Position numbers and translations under genes: made by a program | Shown: positions 3,831 through 37,199 of the stretch, in pieces | Numbering within the stretch: position 1 is the first letter of the stretch | Layout of the letters: each line of letters starts with the position of its first letter | Notes under the pieces: model-generated | Told to the model about the DNA's origin: nothing | Databases searched by the model: none | Seen by the model: only the letters and a program-made list of their open reading frames with translations | Source of the DNA: a virus | UHGV virus genome: UHGV-0267296 | Direction: 5' to 3' (one strand) | DNA: 37,199 nt

Positions 3831-5698
3831 TAAGGAGCGATATGAAACCTTTAAACAGTTACGATAAAAAAGGAATCCTGGCAGAGGAAGTCTTTGTGGA
3901 AATCTTTGAGCAGGAGGATGCTATAAGACGGGCACAGATGCTCCTTTCCTTTCAGGATCGTGCAAAGGAGCTCGGAGTAAAAGGGCAGTTTGACACAATG
4001 GTGAAAGCATTCGAAAAAGCTGAGAAGGAAACTCAGCAGAAACAGCGGCAGAGTCAGACACTCATTGAAAACTGGACGAATTTTACTGGGAAGTACGACT
4101 CTATGAAGTGCGGATCCTGGCTTGCCGCAGACAATGGTATACGGACATTCAATAAGGATTATTCCAACGAGGTGATCGTCTGTTACCATCCAATCATGCC
4201 GATCGGAAGGATGCGGAACCTGGAGACAGGGGAAGAACAGATCCGGCTGGCGTATAAACGTAATCACCGCTGGACAGAGATTGCCGTCCCAAAAGATATT
4301 ATATCTTCGGCAAGCAAGATTGTCTCGTTGTCCAAGCTCGGTGTAGCAGTCACATCCGAAAATGCAAAATTGTTGGTGAAATATCTGTCGGACGTAGAAA
4401 ATATGAACGATGACGAGATCCCAATTCAAAGATCGAGCGCAAAACTAGGCTGGATCGGAGATGGTTTTCTGCCGTATGATACGGAGATTATTTTTGATGG
4501 GGATATGGCATTCGGACAAGTATACGAGAGTATCCGAGAGCATGGAAGCTGGCAGGAGTGGCTGGAGCATGTGAAGGCATTACGCAGGACAGGGCGGTTG
4601 GAGATCAAATTTTCTCTAGCAGCATCCTTTGCAAGTATTCTAGTCAACCGTTTAGGTGCTCTTCCGTTTATTGTTGATCTTTGGGGCGAGACGGAAGGGG
4701 GAAAATCTGTCTCCATGATGCTTGCGGCTTCGATTTGGGCGAATCCGGACAATAACCAGTACATAGGCGATTTCAAGACAACGGACACACAGTTGGAGAT
4801 TCGCGCGGACTTACTGAACCATCTTCCTTTGATGCTGGATGATACCAGCAAGACTAGCAGTCGGATCAGAGATAATTTCGAGGGCGTCGTGTATGATTTG
4901 TGTTCTGGGAAGGGCAAGAGTCGATCCAATAAAGAACTTGGAATCCGCCGGGAGAATCGATGGAAGAATACGATCCTTACAAACGGGGAGCGCCCATTGA
5001 CGTCCTATGTGTCGCAGGGTGGCGCGATTAACCGTATTCTTGAGATTGAATGTGGTGAAAAGGTATATCAGGACCCACAATATACAGCGGAGCTGCTCAA
5101 AAAGAACTATGGATTTGCCGGGAAACGGTTTGTGCAGGTCATAAAGAAGATGGGCGCGGAAGAACTCAGGGAGATACAGCAAAAGCTTCAAAAGGAGCTA
5201 TTCAGCGTTGATAAAATGCAGAAACAGAGCATAGCCATGTCGGTCCTGTTGCTGGCTGATCGGATAGCAACGGATCATATCTTTTATGATGGAGAATATA
5301 TCAGTGTACAGGAAGCTGAAAGCGTCCTTGTGGATAAGAGTGAGGTGTCAGAGCATGAGCGTTGTTACCACTATCTGCTTGACAAGATTAACATGAACCG
5401 GCAGCGTTTTGATGCCGCGGCAACGACGGAGCAATGGGGGATTATTAGCGAAGGATATGCAATCATGTACCCTCAGGCTGTGAAGGAGCTGTGCCGGCAG
5501 GGAGATTATTCCTACAAGGCATTCCTCAACTGGGCGGATAAGCAGGGAATTATCCAGACAGACGGCAAGAACCAGACAAAGCTGAAGAAGATCGACGGCA
5601 AGCCGGTTCGCTGCGTATTCTTGCAGCTGAACGAATTCCAAGACAAGGACGGATTCGAGCCGACGGATGTATCGCAGGAAGAGCTCCCGTTTAAATAA
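3827..5698 (+). CDS. primase/helicase-associated ATPase (DUF927/VirE/P4 primase C-terminal-like)
   Basis: 623 aa with Walker A-like DLWGETEGGKSVS and Walker B-like LPLMLDDTSK. Translationally coupled to the CHC2 ORF; followed by an iteron/palindrome region. Confidence 0.55.
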   Translation: MIRSDMKPLNSYDKKGILAEEVFVEIFEQEDAIRRAQMLLSFQDRAKELGVKGQFDTMVKAFEKAEKETQQKQRQSQTLIENWTNFTGKYDSMKCGSWLAADNGIRTFNKDYSNEVIVCYHPIMPIGRMRNLETGEEQIRLAYKRNHRWTEIAVPKDIISSASKIVSLSKLGVAVTSENAKLLVKYLSDVENMNDDEIPIQRSSAKLGWIGDGFLPYDTEIIFDGDMAFGQVYESIREHGSWQEWLEHVKALRRTGRLEIKFSLAASFASILVNRLGALPFIVDLWGETEGGKSVSMMLAASIWANPDNNQYIGDFKTTDTQLEIRADLLNHLPLMLDDTSKTSSRIRDNFEGVVYDLCSGKGKSRSNKELGIRRENRWKNTILTNGERPLTSYVSQGGAINRILEIECGEKVYQDPQYTAELLKKNYGFAGKRFVQVIKKMGAEELREIQQKLQKELFSVDKMQKQSIAMSVLLLADRIATDHIFYDGEYISVQEAESVLVDKSEVSEHERCYHYLLDKINMNRQRFDAAATTEQWGIISEGYAIMYPQAVKELCRQGDYSYKAFLNWADKQGIIQTDGKNQTKLKKIDGKPVRCVFLQLNEFQDKDGFEPTDVSQEELPFK

Positions 5699-9925: not shown

Positions 9926-9995
9926 TGGAGTATATCATCAACGGCAGATGTGCAGGGTAGCGCCCTGTGTCCCGGTTCAATTCCGGGTGCTCCGC
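9926..9995 (+). other. tRNA-like element (acceptor stem plus canonical T-arm; anticodon/variable region non-canonical)
   Basis: tggagta..(7 bp with 2 G-U)..tgctccg acceptor pairing. D-stem catc/gatg with loop aacggca. Perfect T-arm cccgg-TTCAATT-ccggg. The anticodon arm folds only with a 5-nt loop, or with a 7-nt loop (anticodon AGC) and a 2-nt variable region. No CCA. Confidence 0.25.
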
Positions 9996-31531: not shown

Positions 31532-33013
31532 TTACTGGGATTCCGGCGCATAGTAGTAATAAACTTTCAGCTCATCTTTTGAGCGATCATATATAATCTT
31601 TTCTATCACGCTCTTTAGGATTTCATTTTTGGTTACGGGGTCCACAGAGTCAGATTCTATGATTTCATATACATTTCTTACTTTTTCCAACATAGCGATT
31701 TTAGAAGTATCAATAGTAGGTTCTGCTGGTTTTATGTCTGCAAGCTGCTTTTCCAGCATCTCTTTTTCTTCCTGAACCATGCGCTTATTTTCTTTATATT
31801 CGTCAAGTGTATCTACTCCATTACGGTACGCTTCTCTGATGCGGTCAAATTTTTCCGCATTCTTTCTTAACTGCTCCGTAATAATGACGTTTAGATCCAC
31901 AGAAGTTTCCGGCACCGGTTCAACGTGCCTGTAGATGATGTTGCCACTGTCCAGAACTTCTTTTATGGATGCAAGTACCGCCGGTTCTAACCTTAACGAG
32001 CTTACAGATGTTTTTGCAAGGCATTTTCCTTTTGAGTACCCATAGCATGTAAAATAGCAGTATGATTTTTGGTTACTTACTGTTTTGGCAATCATGGTTC
32101 TTCCGCATACAGGGCACTTCATAAGACCTGATAGCCAATGTTTGTATGTAGAGGAAGGTCTGGCGCCGGAAGGTTTGTATTCGCTTTTGTAACGGATCTG
32201 CGCTTTGTCAAATAATTCTTTAGATATAATAGCAGGTTGCTGACCATCAGAGACAATCCATTCTGATTCCGGTCGGATTTCATTTGTTTCGCTTACGGTA
32301 CGGTTCCATCGGATCATACCGCAGTAAGTTGGGTTCTGTAAGATGTATTCAATAGATCTGCGTTCAAATGGTTTATTGTGAGATGTTTTGAACCCACATG
32401 AATTTAGATAGCGTGCTATGTCGAATATTCCGGTATGTTCATTTACATATTTATCAAATATGATTTTAATTATTTCAGCTTCTTCCGGTACAATAACGGG
32501 AGGCTTTCCACGTTCTTGGATTTTATATCCAAGCGGAGGACGCGCCTGATAGCCGCCGCGTTTTGCCTTTTCTGTCATACCTCGTGTCACTTCGCCGGAA
32601 AGACGGACGGAATAGTACTCGTCCATCCATTCAATGATGCGCTCGATCAAAGAGCCGAACGGACCGTCTACAAGCGGCTCGGAAACGCTTAAAACGTCCA
32701 CATTATGCTTTTTTTTAAGAAGGGACTTATAAACGATAGATTCTTCCTGGTTTCTGGCAAAACGGCTGAATTTCCATACGATGATACAATCGACAGGATG
32801 TTTGTCTGATTTGGCAAGAGCAATCATTTTTTGAAATTCCGGACGTTTATCAGCTTTCCGACCGGAAATACCGAGCTCATAAAAGATTTGCAGGACAATC
32901 ATATCGTTCTTTTTAGCAAAGTCTTTCAACAGTTTTGCCTGCGAATCAGGAGAGAGCTCTTCTTGGCCGGATGTGGATACCCTAACATAACCATAACAAT
33001 ATTTAGTTTTCAT
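31532..33013 (-). CDS. int: large serine recombinase (phage integrase)
   Basis: N-terminal resolvase catalytic domain YGYVRVSTSGQEELSPDSQ (nucleophile Ser), recombinase domain, Cys-rich zinc-ribbon segment (CPVCGRTM..CYFTCYGYSKGKC), coiled-coil C-terminus; 493 aa. Confidence 0.9.
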   Translation of the reverse strand: MKTKYCYGYVRVSTSGQEELSPDSQAKLLKDFAKKNDMIVLQIFYELGISGRKADKRPEFQKMIALAKSDKHPVDCIIVWKFSRFARNQEESIVYKSLLKKKHNVDVLSVSEPLVDGPFGSLIERIIEWMDEYYSVRLSGEVTRGMTEKAKRGGYQARPPLGYKIQERGKPPVIVPEEAEIIKIIFDKYVNEHTGIFDIARYLNSCGFKTSHNKPFERRSIEYILQNPTYCGMIRWNRTVSETNEIRPESEWIVSDGQQPAIISKELFDKAQIRYKSEYKPSGARPSSTYKHWLSGLMKCPVCGRTMIAKTVSNQKSYCYFTCYGYSKGKCLAKTSVSSLRLEPAVLASIKEVLDSGNIIYRHVEPVPETSVDLNVIITEQLRKNAEKFDRIREAYRNGVDTLDEYKENKRMVQEEKEMLEKQLADIKPAEPTIDTSKIAMLEKVRNVYEIIESDSVDPVTKNEILKSVIEKIIYDRSKDELKVYYYYAPESQ

Positions 33014-33198: not shown

Positions 33199-33226
33199 TT
33201 GACATTTATGGTACATTTGCTATAAT
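33199..33226 (+). promoter_or_regulatory. near-consensus sigma70 promoter (TTGACA-16-TATAAT) driving a short + strand transcript with no ORF
   Basis: cttgacatttatggtacatttgctataatg; no + strand coding sequence until 35282. Confidence 0.5.
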
Positions 33227-33233
33227 GTACTTA

Positions 33234-33336
33234 ACAGGATAGCCGGAAGGTGACTGCACCTCACCCGCTCCGGTGCAACTTAAAAAACTATAAGAAATAG
33301 TCGTCAGCTTTGTCAGGGCAGGACGGCTATTTTTTA
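33234..33336 (+). ncRNA. candidate antisense sRNA (type I antitoxin-like) ending in T-run overlapping the 3' end of minus-strand peptide gene
   Basis: ~100 nt from predicted TSS to ctatttttt at 33327-33336; internal stems ggtgactgcacc and ccgg..ccgg; 3' end overlaps stop codon region of the 33327..33410 peptide ORF. Confidence 0.3.
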
Positions 33337-33410
33337 TGCGTATAATTCAGAATGGCTACAACCAAAAGCGCAATGCTTATGATCAAACTGAGTTCTTCAT
33401 ATGTACTCAT
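33327..33410 (-). CDS. 27-aa hydrophobic peptide, type I toxin-like (MSTYEELSLIISIALLVVAILNYTHKK)
   Basis: ATG preceded by strong SD ggagggggggtgg; single TM helix plus basic C-terminus; convergent with and overlapping the promoter-driven + strand RNA. Confidence 0.4.
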   Translation of the reverse strand: MSTYEELSLIISIALLVVAILNYTHKK

Positions 33411-33543
33411 AATTACCACCCCCCCTCCACAGGATTCTCGGAATGGGTGGAAGCTCGTCCTCCGGCTACCCTGGTAAATACATTTTCCTTCGTATATGCT
33501 CCGGCGACTTTGGGAGTGTCGGGTATATTTCGTATAACGTAAA

Positions 33544-33567
33544 AGACCCCGTATTACTACGGGGTCT
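33544..33567 (-). terminator. terminator of the minus-strand PemK/MazF-like operon
   Basis: agaccccgta-ttac-tacggggtct; on the minus strand followed by ttttac. Confidence 0.65.
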
Positions 33568-33674
33568 AAGTTGTGCAGGTAAACTGCATTGTCCTAATGT
33601 TATACACGCTAAGGTGTTTTGTTCTATAACATTATATGTTGGTATGCCCCAAAAGTCAATACTTTATACTATAA

Positions 33675-34421
33675 TTATTTACCAATATATAATTCGCAGA
33701 TTTTTTTATCTATTATATTTAAACTTTCATCGCTTAATTTTATACCTGCAAAAGCATCGGAATAATGCAAAGGTTTTGTTATTCGTATTTTGCTAATTGT
33801 TGTGATTTGAGAAACTAAGCCAATGCTTCCAGTTTTCATTAAATCAATTTCTTTTTGCACCTTATCGGCTTCCGTTGTATCTACTGTAAAAGCTATCGTT
33901 ATTTTCTCTCCGGCATACACCGGATTTGGCGATACTTTCACATCTTGAATTGAATTATTGAATTTTTGCATATACTTTTGATGGAGCTTATCATATATTT
34001 CGTTTCCCAAATCAATAGTGAATTTATTAGGTGTGGTATATTCTTTTTTAGATGAAAGAGGAAGTACGGTTAATATATCGGAATAAGGGGAGTCTTTTTT
34101 ATTTAAAACAACCGCATAATGCAATCCGCCTTCTTCATGACCAATACGAAAGCCTAGGTCAACTTGAATAATTTCACCTCTTTTGTATACTTTATTTTTT
34201 GAAGCATCAAATGTTTTTTCTTTTTTAATAAATCTACAATATGTATTGATCCAATACGAAAGCAGATTTACTTTTTTGAGATGGGAATCGTTTTCTGTTG
34301 TGCTGTCTTCAGGTGCTTTTTTAATGTGTGCTTCAAGCAGCTCATTAAGGGTTTTTATAGCTCTTTTTTTATTTCCGATGACCTCATTTTTATCGAAAAA
34401 ATATTTTTCTTTTTGTTTCAT
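33675..34421 (-). CDS. atypically long PemK/MazF-fold protein (249 aa) - toxin/abortive-infection candidate
   Basis: KRGEIIQVDLGFRIGHEEGGLHYAVVLNKKDSPYSDILTVLPLSS matches the MazF/PemK core (RGdIv.vdf..g.E..g.RPalVls). Second conserved block LVSQITTISKIRI ~70 aa later implies an insertion. ATG at 34421 with RBS gagggaag; N-terminal 90-aa extension. Confidence 0.55.
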   Translation of the reverse strand: MKQKEKYFFDKNEVIGNKKRAIKTLNELLEAHIKKAPEDSTTENDSHLKKVNLLSYWINTYCRFIKKEKTFDASKNKVYKRGEIIQVDLGFRIGHEEGGLHYAVVLNKKDSPYSDILTVLPLSSKKEYTTPNKFTIDLGNEIYDKLHQKYMQKFNNSIQDVKVSPNPVYAGEKITIAFTVDTTEADKVQKEIDLMKTGSIGLVSQITTISKIRITKPLHYSDAFAGIKLSDESLNIIDKKICELYIGK

Positions 34422-34500
34422 AGCGTTTTTACTTCCCTCTCTTTCTTTTGTCCCCTGTTCCTTTAACACCACTTTATATAATCGCCGTAGCGGTTATACC

Positions 34501-34713
34501 TTATTTATGCGCAGACATTTCGATTTTCTGTACATCTATTTTCTCAAAATCACGCTCCTTTATATGCCTAATCGCATGGTTAATTGCCTTTAACCGTTTG
34601 CTTTCACATAAATTTGCGTTTATAAAAATAGTGAATGAATTATCTTCATTCTCGGTTATTACTTCATTAACGGTCATTCCGTCCATGAAAAAAATTTGAT
34701 AATCAAAACTCAT
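34501..34713 (-). CDS. small protein upstream of MazF-like gene (candidate antitoxin), 70 aa
   Basis: Co-directional, immediately 5' of the MazF-like gene, overlaps repressor stop; acidic N-half, basic C-half (KRLKAINHAIRHIKERDFEK). Confidence 0.35.
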   Translation of the reverse strand: MSFDYQIFFMDGMTVNEVITENEDNSFTIFINANLCESKRLKAINHAIRHIKERDFEKIDVQKIEMSAHK

Positions 34714-35080
34714 TATTATCACGTTCCTTTTTCTTTAATGCCATAAGCATGTCATATGTTGTTTTCAAATCTTCCGGAGTAGCATCTTTTGCAGCATCGA
34801 ATAAGACACGCAAATCTTTGTTTTCAAATAGTTTTTGTGCCATCTCAGCGGTTTCTTCGTTTAAATAGTACTTCTCACCGCCTTCCTTTTCTTCGCCAGT
34901 ACGAATATACTCTACTGATACTCCAAACAAGTCAGCAATTTTTTGTAGTTTTGCATCTTTGGGGTTGCTTCTTCCATTCTTCCAGTCGGAGAAAGTTGAC
35001 TTGGTAATCCCAGTTTCCCTTGCAACGTCAGCGTCTTTCATGCCTTTGGCATCTCTTAACTTGCAATAAATTTCATACAT
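34703..35080 (-). CDS. CI-like repressor (XRE-family HTH plus C-terminal domain)
   Basis: ATG 35080 with SD gaggtg; HTH DADVARETGITKSTFSDWKNGRSNPKDAKLQKIADLFGVSVEYI; divergent from cro-like gene. The ORF track extends further 5' to 35176 through the operator region. Confidence 0.8.
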   Translation of the reverse strand: MYEIYCKLRDAKGMKDADVARETGITKSTFSDWKNGRSNPKDAKLQKIADLFGVSVEYIRTGEEKEGGEKYYLNEETAEMAQKLFENKDLRVLFDAAKDATPEDLKTTYDMLMALKKKERDNNEF

Positions 35081-35281: not shown

Positions 35282-35491
35282 ATGTATGAAAAATATGTAG
35301 AAATCAGGGATTCAAGAAAACTGACAGATTATCGTGTGTCAGAAGATACTGGAATAACTAAATCTACATTTTCTGATTGGAAGTCAGGAAGAAGTAAGCC
35401 AAAGATGGAAAAGCTCAAAATCCTCGCCGACTACTTCGGAGTATCTATTGAGTACTTCCTAGAGGAGTGTAACAGGAAAGGTGTTCGATAA
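35282..35491 (+). CDS. Cro-like XRE-family HTH regulator
   Basis: 69 aa; HTH TDYRVSEDTGITKSTFSDWKSGRSKPKMEKLKILADYFGVSIEYF, nearly the same recognition helix region as the CI-like protein. Confidence 0.75.
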   Translation: MYEKYVEIRDSRKLTDYRVSEDTGITKSTFSDWKSGRSKPKMEKLKILADYFGVSIEYFLEECNRKGVR

Positions 35492-36720: not shown

Positions 36721-37199
36721 GTGAAGAAATTTGAATTAACAAATGAATTTATTACAAATATGTTCGGGACAAAGCTGTTCCGCATCCGTGCCCTTGTTGA
36801 GTTCGGCGATGTGGAAGCCGGAGAACTTGGCGGGTATGTGGAGAAGGAATCAAACCTTGGTCATGACGACAATGCGTGGGTGTACGACAATGCGTGGGTG
36901 TACGGCAATGCGCTGGTGTGCGGCAATGCGCGGGTGTGCGGCGATGCGCGGGTGTGCGGCAATGCGCTGGTGTGCGGCAATGCGCTGGTGTACGACAATG
37001 CGTGGGTGTACGGCAATGCGCGGGTGTGCGGCAATGCGCTGGTGTACGACAATGCGTGGGTGTACGGCAATGCGCGGGTGTGCGGCGATGCGCGGGTGTG
37101 CGGCGATGCGCGGGTGTGCGGCAATGGGGACTATGCATACGCTCACGGTTTCGGATCTGTCAACCGTACAACGACCTTCTTCCGTCTCAAAGATGGTGG
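36721..37199 (+). CDS. hexapeptide-repeat (N-A-x-V-x-G/D) protein, N-terminal part; runs off the right end and plausibly continues at 2..139
   Basis: GTG start with SD aaaggg; after a 48-aa leader, ~14 consecutive 6-aa repeats NAWVYD/NALVCG/NARVCG/DARVCG then GNGDYAYAHGFGSVNRTTTFFRLKDG; no stop before the window end. Confidence 0.6.
   Translation, partial: MKKFELTNEFITNMFGTKLFRIRALVEFGDVEAGELGGYVEKESNLGHDDNAWVYDNAWVYGNALVCGNARVCGDARVCGNALVCGNALVYDNAWVYGNARVCGNALVYDNAWVYGNARVCGDARVCGDARVCGNGDYAYAHGFGSVNRTTTFFRLKDG
36865..37126. repeat. tandem array of ~14.5 imperfect 18-bp units (consensus gacaatgcgtgggtgtac / ggcaatgcgcgggtgtgc)
   Basis: Directly visible periodicity; causes all six frames to be open locally (minus-strand ORFs 36752..37138, 36850..37146, 36861..37124 are repeat artefacts). 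Confidence 0.9.

Follow-up and report, generated by a model that had tools for sequence, protein, structure and literature searches.

The stretch analysed here, called the window throughout, is the whole 37,199 nucleotides (nt) of the virus genome UHGV-0267296, overall a siphovirus-type temperate phage genome with a Lachnospiraceae-like host. Its lysogeny region carries on the minus strand, at 33675-34421, the gene of a long MazF/PemK-fold protein of 248 amino acids (aa) plus stop (PemK in what follows), apparently a member of a Sma-like family; a truncated protein 98% identical to it is annotated in [Ruminococcus] torques. The region is ordered as cro-like gene, XRE repressor, 70-aa open reading frame (ORF), PemK, terminator and serine integrase, and the gene order and the slot between repressor and integrase are as the original prediction for this locus described them. 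The strong terminator which that prediction put at the end of the operon is real as well (33567-33544, minus strand), but it is the terminator of a conserved small RNA unit lying just downstream of PemK, the remainder of which had been overlooked. The existence of this unit, its covariation and its linkage to the PemK gene are shown computationally, and it is this unit that makes the locus worth a follow-up.

The PemK protein and its family

Read from a GTG start, the PemK ORF extends on the minus strand over 33675-34472 and encodes 265 aa. The likely start is rather the ATG at 34421, preceded by a GAGGGA ribosome-binding site, which gives 248 aa, and the closest homologues are likewise 248 aa long; the ORF proposed originally is thus real, its announced length of 249 aa was slightly off and its residue numbers fit the 265-aa reading. 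In the 248-aa numbering kept from here on, the first MazF block, KRGEIIQVDLGFRIGHEEGGLHYAVVLNKKDSPYSDILTVLPLSS, occupies residues 80-124 and the second, LVSQITTISKIRI, residues 202-214. The protein is composed, all on the minus strand, of an N-terminal extension (aa 1-79; 34185-34421), a first half of the MazF core with the GxE96-GG-x-H101-Y loop and P121-L-[ST]123-S124 (aa 80-140; 34002-34184), a family-variable insertion (aa 141-197; 33831-34001) and a second half of the core with the invariant G198, Q205, S210, K211 and R213 (aa 198-248; 33678-33830). Both the N-terminal extension and a large insertion between the MazF blocks had been predicted; the former is present with 79 aa, and the latter is real, with 57 aa here and 52-107 aa family-wide.

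The resemblance to MazF goes well beyond chance. Pfam PemK_toxin (PF02452) matches with 42.5 bits, against a cut-off of 23.1, and covers profile positions 1-62 of 109 only. A profile built from 109 family members matches the solved MazF, EndoA and PemK chains of the PDB in two separate blocks—profile positions 69-121 align with MazF 4-57, and 203-238 with MazF 71-106—and therefore the insertion sits where canonical MazF has a short loop. The AlphaFold2 model computed on the family alignment has a mean predicted local distance difference test (pLDDT) of 92.8 and a predicted template modelling score (pTM) of 0.83. When it was compared with the PDB by Foldseek (354 matches at E<=10, 46 at E<=0.001), all 50 best matches listed were chains of the MazF family, under the names MazF, YdcE/EndoA, MoxT or mRNA interferase, with a best E of 6.7e-7 and target template modelling scores (TM-scores) of 0.75-0.85; the top matches come from the MazF of S. 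aureus, B. subtilis and M. tuberculosis. Among viral models Foldseek returned PemK-like proteins, one of them a full-length match (TM 0.64). Pfam, the family profile, AlphaFold2 and Foldseek thus agree on the SH3-like barrel of MazF/Kid/CcdB, the fold which the original prediction had proposed for verification. A weak Pfam match to BatD within the insertion (E 0.029) is below threshold, and the NCBIfam scan gave nothing useful.

Around this barrel, the model gives to the N-terminal extension two long helices (aa 11-35 and 46-68), where W57 is invariant in the family and Y61, E68 and F71 nearly so. The insertion is modelled as helix, beta-hairpin and helix in the window protein, and as a longer helical stretch in most relatives. 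Column entropy is about 1.4 in the two core halves, 2.2 in the N-terminal extension and 2.8 (2.78) in the insertion.

The conservation of the catalytic residues, which had been named as a check of the prediction, is partial. E96, the equivalent of E24 of Escherichia coli MazF (EcMazF), is invariant in the alignment of the 109 members, and position 123, which corresponds to the catalytic T52 of EcMazF and T48 of BsMazF, is Ser or Thr in 105/109. In contrast, the position of the catalytic Arg (R29 of EcMazF, R25 of BsMazF) is H101 in the window protein and His in 109/109 members, so that the Arg characteristic of the MazF/PemK superfamily is replaced while the Thr and E24 equivalents are kept. 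The active-site region thus appears strongly conserved but chemically altered, in a way compatible with a His-using RNase. Compared with canonical MazF, PemK and EndoA, the window protein shares the fold (target TM-score ~0.8), the G-x-E-x-G-G substrate loop and the E24 and T52 equivalents; unlike them it is twice as long, with its 79-aa extension and the family insertion of 52-107 aa for a short loop, it has His for the catalytic Arg, and it has no adjacent MazE/PemI.

PemK had been presented as atypically long, which does not hold: the protein belongs to a PHROG (phrog_1412, 1.6e-54, the match spanning 30-247 of 248), has 601 homologues at E<=1e-3 in a large protein collection and is matched at E<=1e-30 by 420 clusters (50% identity) when 1.84 billion representative sequences are searched, its own exact cluster counting 392 member sequences. 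Matches occur in 110 phage records, all of Staphylococcus or Streptococcus, phages in which the order is repressor, (ImmA-like gene), PemK gene, integrase. The PHROG 1412 family is typical of lysogeny modules in Firmicutes prophages and satellites. Its annotation in phage records varies between hypothetical, PemK-like, “mazE-like” and “pathogenicity island SaPIn2” protein. The label of PHROG 1412 itself, “antitoxin mazE-like”, contradicts the toxin fold and the Pfam match; it is probably a misnomer, and looks like a systematic mis-annotation propagated in phage records.

One likely relative has a reported phenotype. Sma was described as a single-protein anti-phage system of a staphylococcal island, expressed in the lysogenic state and protecting against non-helper phages, with a copy beside hsdMS in the vSa-alpha island of S. 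aureus RN4220 (PMC12409344, PMC12829572). In the SaPIpT1028 record (AY954948) the sole MazF-like ORF is ORF005, of 265 aa, which adjoins the integrase. ORF005 scores 94 bits against the family hidden Markov model and shares with the window protein 28% identity over residues 45-245 (E 7e-16) as well as its architecture. Because of this full-length homology, and because ORF005 is the sole MazF-like ORF of SaPIpT1028, we assign the window gene to the Sma-like family, of which it would be a distant member; judged by homology, it is of a known kind. Both proteins display a helical N-terminus with a YW motif, the GGxH[YF] loop, PLSS, a helical insertion and a C-terminal ISK motif, and both genes have no protein partner, stand beside the integrase of a lysogenic element and are followed by a hairpin-plus-terminator region. 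On the other hand, the host of the window is a Lachnospiraceae-type gut bacterium and not a Staphylococcus, the insertion of the window protein is shorter with a beta-hairpin tip, the staphylococcal branch differs at Q205 and R213, and the window gene stands between repressor and integrase whereas ORF005 lies beyond the integrase.

The surroundings of the family are partly constant and partly not. An integrase, tyrosine or serine, is the first sizeable same-strand gene downstream in 41 of 78 loci, and some loci have no integrase downstream. The direct upstream neighbour is heterogeneous: it falls in an XRE cluster in 12 loci, is ImmA-like in 5 and is a singleton in 39 of 62. No conserved protein neighbour was found upstream (62 loci) or downstream of PemK, nor any adjacent MazE/PemI. 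In prophages whose PemK is 61-63% identical to that of the window, the slot also carries a gene for an Ltp-type lipoprotein (L092, 3129-3944) or a Uma2-family gene (L093, 1450-1995). Ltp is a superinfection-exclusion family. These neighbours show that the interval between repressor and integrase is a swap site for exclusion and defence cargo. The slot is the classical one of lysogen-expressed morons. The original prediction, which saw here the usual place of superinfection-exclusion or abortive-infection genes, agrees with this and with the apparent inclusion in the family of Sma, a lysogen-expressed anti-phage system.

The predicted small RNA unit downstream of PemK

The 660 nt between the PemK stop and the integrase were compared with related loci. 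A hairpin of 33-35 nt is >90% identical between loci whose PemK proteins are just 35-40% identical, and it always stands ~100-135 nt past the PemK stop codon. It belongs to a unit of regular layout. The unit begins a median of 11 nt past the PemK stop with a -35 box TTGAC(T/A), a 17-nt spacer and TATAAT, continues for ~65-80 nt with two short hairpins, and ends on a terminator made of a 9-bp stem with a GNRA loop (GACCYCGTA-GNAA-TACGRGGTC) followed by TTTTACG. In the window, all on the minus strand, the sigma-70-type promoter TTGACT-17-TATAAT lies at 33631-33659 (11/12 consensus matches), starting 18 nt past the PemK stop; the predicted sRNA (small RNA), of ~85 nt, is at 33537-33625, with hairpin 1 at 33618-33605, hairpin 2 at 33589-33575 and the GNRA-capped intrinsic terminator, a 10-bp stem with 6 GC pairs followed by a T-run, at the position given above.

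The promoter is not a chance motif: a perfect TTGAC[AT]-N16-18-TAnAAT occurs within <=80 nt of the PemK stop in 52% of 86 loci, compared with 0.0% of shuffles, 0% on the reverse strand and 2% upstream of the gene. Predicted RNAs could be delimited in 71/87 loci, with a median of 97 nt; that of the window has a minimum free energy of -26.8 kcal/mol (z = -4.05). In an alignment of 26 sequences, two Streptococcus phages included, RNAalifold finds three hairpins. Hairpin 1 has zero broken pairs and many double changes (at one position CG 11, GC 10, UA 3 and AU 2). Over the alignment 91.7% of the cells are paired versus 72% in shuffles, and 88 cells show a double change versus 28.5 in shuffles; none of 500 shuffles reaches as high, and all slid registers collapse. 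A covariance model (R1; 68.7 bits and E 6e-11 for the window RNA) yields 67 matches at E<=0.01 in 817 kb, exactly one per locus, all of them just 3' of PemK on the same strand and none elsewhere; it has no match in six loci which carry the 70-aa ORF without PemK. The predicted RNA, of ~85-100 nt, is thus present in at least 67 of the 87 PemK loci.

The two hairpins are tandem copies of a ~33-nt unit, more alike within than between loci (p about 0.006). In the two-hairpin subtype (alignment A4), near-invariance among the unpaired bases is confined to two stretches with ACA, located 5' of the hairpins. Visual inspection shows the same layout in 10/10 Bacilli loci, several of which have near-identical tandem units that differ by compensatory changes, e.g. 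GCCGC...GCGGC versus GTCGC...GCGAC, and the homologues of S. aureus phages and pathogenicity islands (SaPIs) have tandem hairpin units behind the gene as well, e.g. ACAAGCCGCTGAAATATTTGCGGCA twice. Rfam 15 contains no matching family for the RNA of the window or of 11 related loci, and the unit appears to be undescribed. An antisense control of the PemK 5' region by the sRNA was considered and rejected: there is no excess of complementarity to that region (mean z -0.18 over 71 loci), which argues against a control of type I.

How specific the unit is for PemK depends on which part of it is considered. A search of viral contigs with the terminator sequence gave 58 loci, 45 of which have a long PemK ORF ending 95-158 nt upstream. 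Two of the contigs (L110 and L133) have no PemK ORF upstream of the terminator and are read as apparent remnants; the non-PemK genes found before the unit encode a DUF4429+SHOCT protein, an RNase_T-type exonuclease or a PBECR3 nuclease. The core of the type-A hairpin is not specific to PemK loci (11/92), so that our claim of specificity is limited to the complete unit: in the loci that carry the hairpin motif the full model matches 10 times, and 8 of these 10 matches are behind PemK. The complete unit is tightly, not exclusively, linked to the PemK family.

Some of the arrangements met in these searches deserve mention in their own right. The promoter-hairpin-terminator unit follows genes for DUF4429(PH)+SHOCT proteins or for an RNase_T-type exonuclease with an N-terminal zinc-ribbon-like region (L095, L096, L100, L109, L112, L128; L151), and in 4/6 of the DUF4429+SHOCT loci the distance from stop to hairpin is 113 nt, inside the PemK range of 95-158 nt; these proteins may be alternative effectors using the same RNA. 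A skipping-rope RNA (RF02924, 65.9 bits; L101, ~4635-4713 oriented) stands between a PBECR3 nuclease gene and a shortened hairpin-plus-terminator unit, an arrangement seen again in L144, L119 and L137, a hint that nuclease toxins may have other orphan RNA motifs as partners. As for the hairpin alone, aUaUC-GCCUAUAGGGC-AUUAAAGAAGA recurs right after the stops of unrelated phage genes (L158, L159-L162, L179, L215; L249, L204); its hosts include a 136-aa gene judged structural and a 131-aa gene resembling a 3D-domain protein, by sequence inspection alone, and a tandem hairpin pair is found behind a BRO-like gene. Neither a promoter nor a terminator accompanies these copies, which appear to be a dispersed phage RNA or REP-like element.

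The 70-aa ORF and other elements of the window

Upstream of PemK, the leftward lysogeny operon starts with the XRE/cI-like repressor of 125 aa (34703-35080, minus strand; Pfam HTH_3 6.8e-13, Phage_CI_repr 9.7e-5), from which a cro-like helix-turn-helix gene diverges (35282-35491, plus strand). The 70-aa ORF (34501-34713, minus strand) overlaps the repressor stop by 11 nt and is translationally coupled to the repressor. The original prediction took it as a partner of PemK within the same operon; the ORF exists and is conserved, but as a partner it does not stand, as it co-occurs with the repressor and with unrelated cargo. It belongs to a conserved protein family (phrog_20886, 1.4e-39; 68 clusters), with a weak match to the metalloprotease phrog_87 (0.037). 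In six independent contexts its homologue P0172 always follows a 125-aa XRE gene with the same overlap, and the cargo downstream is unrelated, e.g. a 421-aa protein with a Phage_Mu_F domain, with no PemK. Conversely, ORFs resembling the 70-aa ORF are only 6 across 83 PemK loci. The candidate role of PemK antitoxin was rejected on these three grounds—coupling to the repressor, PemK-free contexts and scarcity in PemK loci.

The family pattern “TIFVNxNL...RLxAxxHAxxHI...DF...IE..AH”, with a conserved E65 and H69, resembles the HEXXH region of ImmA/IrrE, except that the catalytic Glu of HEXXH is Ala: HAxxH is found in 26 of 27 aligned members. The window 70-aa protein has no Pfam match; a 72-aa relative with HELQH matches Peptidase_M78 (E 3.2e-4) with 20.9 bits, under the cut-off of 22, and in close relatives of the locus a full-length Peptidase_M78 gene occupies the slot of the 70-aa ORF. 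The model of the protein has the beta-beta-beta-alpha-alpha order of a minimal zincin, and neither a sequence profile search of the PDB nor Foldseek on the model gave a significant match. From its sequence pattern and its model, the 70-aa ORF is probably a degenerate mini ImmA/IrrE-like zincin of the repressor module, devoid of the catalytic Glu. With the ImmR/ImmA pair it shares its position directly downstream of an XRE repressor, to which it is coupled, and the pattern “tIfiN..L....rl.a..H.xxH”; it differs by its length of only 70 aa, by HAxxH in nearly all members, by a score below the Pfam threshold and by its lack of a structural match. One possibility is a miniature anti-repressor protease that has lost its catalytic activity.

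The 79-nt gap between the 70-aa ORF and PemK contains a 9-bp inverted repeat, TATAACCGC-TACG-GCGATTATA in minus-strand reading (34477-34498). It is not followed by a T-run on the minus strand and so is not an operon terminator; it may mark a junction between modules or serve for RNA processing.

On the other side, between the sRNA and the large serine recombinase of 493 aa which is the prophage integrase (31532-33013, minus strand), lies the gene of a 27-aa hydrophobic peptide, MSTYEELSLIISIALLVVAILNYTHKK, with a GGAGG ribosome-binding site (33327-33410, minus strand). Its amino-acid sequence is kept in ~20 loci despite divergence of the DNA. A perfect sigma-70 promoter (12/12, extended TG; 33199-33226, plus strand) converges on it, with a -10 box ~100 nt beyond the peptide stop, and a convergent promoter occurs 98-106 nt beyond the stop in most of the peptide loci. 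The peptide with this putative antisense RNA promoter has, by its sequence, the layout of a type I toxin-antitoxin-like system, apparently independent of the PemK gene; the leader of the peptide mRNA folds no better than shuffles (z 0.7).

Two further elements lie elsewhere in the window. A tandem array in the early region (36870-37126) counts 14.3 copies of the 18-nt unit CAATGCGCGGGTGTGCGG with 89% matches; it is unusually GC-rich for the phage and open in several frames, and could be an origin or iteron-like repeat, or encode a repeat protein. ARAGORN detects a tRNA-Ala (anticodon AGC) at 9927-9995 on the plus strand, where Rfam at its gathering threshold reports no tRNA.

Possible function of the locus

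The explanation which we favour as a whole, with a probability of about 0.6, is that the locus carries a Sma-like, partner-less MazF defence gene together with a downstream RNA. Its first part, namely that PemK is an effector of Sma-like defence or abortive infection, expressed in the lysogen and built on a MazF-type RNA-targeting core, we consider rather likely from homology and context. The gene order, overlap, spacing and single terminator suggest that the lysogen transcribes PemK from the repressor operon, in which it comes last. The MazF barrel and substrate loop appear retained, and E96, H101, S/T123, S124, K211 and R213 are invariant or nearly so in the alignment. From this fold, these residues and the phenotype of the homologue, PemK would most probably act as an endoribonuclease that halts translation when triggered by a superinfecting phage, resulting in abortive infection or exclusion, which would protect the lysogen population. 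Candidate seats of regulation or sensing are the family-specific N-terminal helices and the inserted helical arm with its hypervariable sequence. The toxin or abortive-infection candidate of the original prediction keeps in this way its toxin fold and its defence slot, supported by homology and context, and loses its 70-aa partner.

A comparable organisation exists in S. aureus prophages, where Tha/Ith is a defence gene inside the cI operon with a safeguard acting at the RNA level (PMC11087260). There too, lysogens transcribe the defence effector together with cI, and Tha expression is influenced by an additional promoter within the module. On the other hand, Tha is a HEPN protein and its safeguard an antisense protein-coding unit, whereas the unit of the window is on the same strand, non-coding and downstream.

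The role of the RNA is the more tentative part. It might be the missing neutraliser of PemK, acting like the RNA antitoxin of a type III system or as a pseudo-substrate: its own strong promoter would keep it in excess, until infection shuts off host transcription and the RNA is lost. We consider this less likely than not. The precedent is given by ToxN and AbiQ, MazF homologues neutralised by tandem-repeat RNAs of 34-36 nt, with only 2.8 repeats for AbiQ (PMC7781912). The window shares with ToxIN and AbiQ-antiQ a MazF-related fold beside a short, structured tandem-repeat RNA with a terminator, the anti-phage function being suggested here by homology; its repeat is ~33 nt versus 34-36 nt, in two copies. 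The order differs: toxin, promoter, repeats and terminator in the window, versus promoter, repeats, terminator and toxin in one transcript in type III systems. Unlike in ToxIN and AbiQ, RNA units similar to that of the window also follow other genes. At E<=1 the window protein has no Pfam match to the ToxN/AbiQ, CptN and TenpN families, PemK_toxin being the only toxin family matched. Between neutralisation by the RNA and self-inhibition of the protein, we give the former slightly less than even odds. In its favour, PemK has no protein partner, the promoter of the unit is strong and its own, the unit persists while the protein diverges to 25-30% identity, and ToxN and AbiQ offer a precedent.

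Several observations weigh against this reading as a whole. The defence function is deduced from a homologue at 28% identity, and that ORF005 is sma we infer from its being the only MazF-like ORF in AY954948; no PADLOC 2.0 model matches PemK (nor the 70-aa ORF). RNase activity is not assured, because the catalytic Arg of MazF is His in all the members aligned. For the step of RNA antitoxin, the Staphylococcus loci are beyond the reach of the covariance model, the likeness there being one seen by eye and weakest in SaPIpT1028. One hairpin subtype, GCCTATAGGGCATnAAnnAAGA, has 95 occurrences in viral contigs; most are behind two structural or cell-wall genes of abundant phage lineages and have neither promoter nor terminator, and only 11 are behind a PemK gene. 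The hairpin alone is thus a more widely used phage RNA motif, which could be a general phage RNA or a repetitive extragenic palindromic (REP)-like element. Three further points count against the same step: Sma is called a single-protein system in the literature, the RNA sits downstream with its own promoter, unlike in ToxIN and AbiQ, and the remaining 13 of the 58 contigs of the terminator search have other genes upstream.

The rival that survives best takes PemK as a single-protein toxin, self-inhibited by its N-terminal helices and/or its insertion—a cis antitoxin—until a phage protein binds. The RNA unit would be then a terminator-plus-insulator, a 3'-end stabiliser, a REP-like element or an independent regulatory sRNA. 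This fits the name given to Sma, the invariance of W57, E68 and F71 in the N-terminal extension, the insertion being the most variable region, as expected of a sensor, and the presence of the hairpin motif behind unrelated phage genes. It accounts less well for the conservation of a promoter, two covarying hairpins and a terminator across Clostridia, Streptococcus and Staphylococcus at 25-30% protein identity, or for the near-confinement to PemK (8/10) of the full-model matches among isolated-hairpin loci. We regard it as doubtful, though by no means negligible.

PemK might alternatively have nothing to do with defence, and be an RNA-binding or processing factor of the prophage, involved in the control of the integrase or of the lysis-lysogeny decision, perhaps non-catalytic, with the RNA as its target. 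The invariant change of Arg to His, the position of the gene directly upstream of the integrase in about half of the loci and the dedicated structured RNA that adjoins it would agree with such a role. But the gene is also found where no integrase follows, satellites carry it, the literature places a copy in a chromosomal defence island by hsdMS, its homologue is reported to be phage-protective, and its neighbours in the same slot of relatives are of exclusion or defence type (Ltp, Uma2), which makes this possibility improbable. Finally, a classical type II pair, with the 70-aa ORF or the XRE repressor as antitoxin, is suggested by the small ORF just upstream in the same operon and by the existence of XRE antitoxins in some systems, an XRE gene being directly upstream in 12/62 loci, but it is very improbable given that the 70-aa family is tied to the repressor by coupling, accompanies Phage_Mu_F and other cargo without PemK, has only 6 similar ORFs in 83 PemK loci and resembles a zincin rather than MazE/AbrB, that upstream singletons make 39/62, and that the SaPIpT1028 gene lies beyond the integrase, away from the repressor Stl. 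Its co-occurrence shows that the 70-aa ORF is not the antitoxin and belongs with the repressor; we reassign it from partner of PemK to the repressor module.

If the neutralisation by RNA is extended to the family, the whole Sma-like family, the staphylococcal system included, would be a two-component protein-RNA module, a new type III-like toxin-antitoxin or abortive-infection system in reverse order; drawn by analogy, this generalisation seems to us rather unlikely. In the same line, the solitary hairpins found in other phages could be antitoxin mimics. The analogy here is with pseudo-ToxI.

Whatever the role of the RNA, the assignment of the window gene adds a branch of gut Clostridia to a defence family so far known from one staphylococcal island, and makes the Sma-like family a standard cargo of the slot between repressor and integrase in Firmicutes prophages and satellites, which is useful for annotating the prophages of the human gut. 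If the RNA is indeed a neutraliser or a regulator of PemK, an RNA component would be hidden in a published “single-protein” system, control by RNA would be common to the MazF and ToxN branches of one fold, and a new RNA family would be defined.

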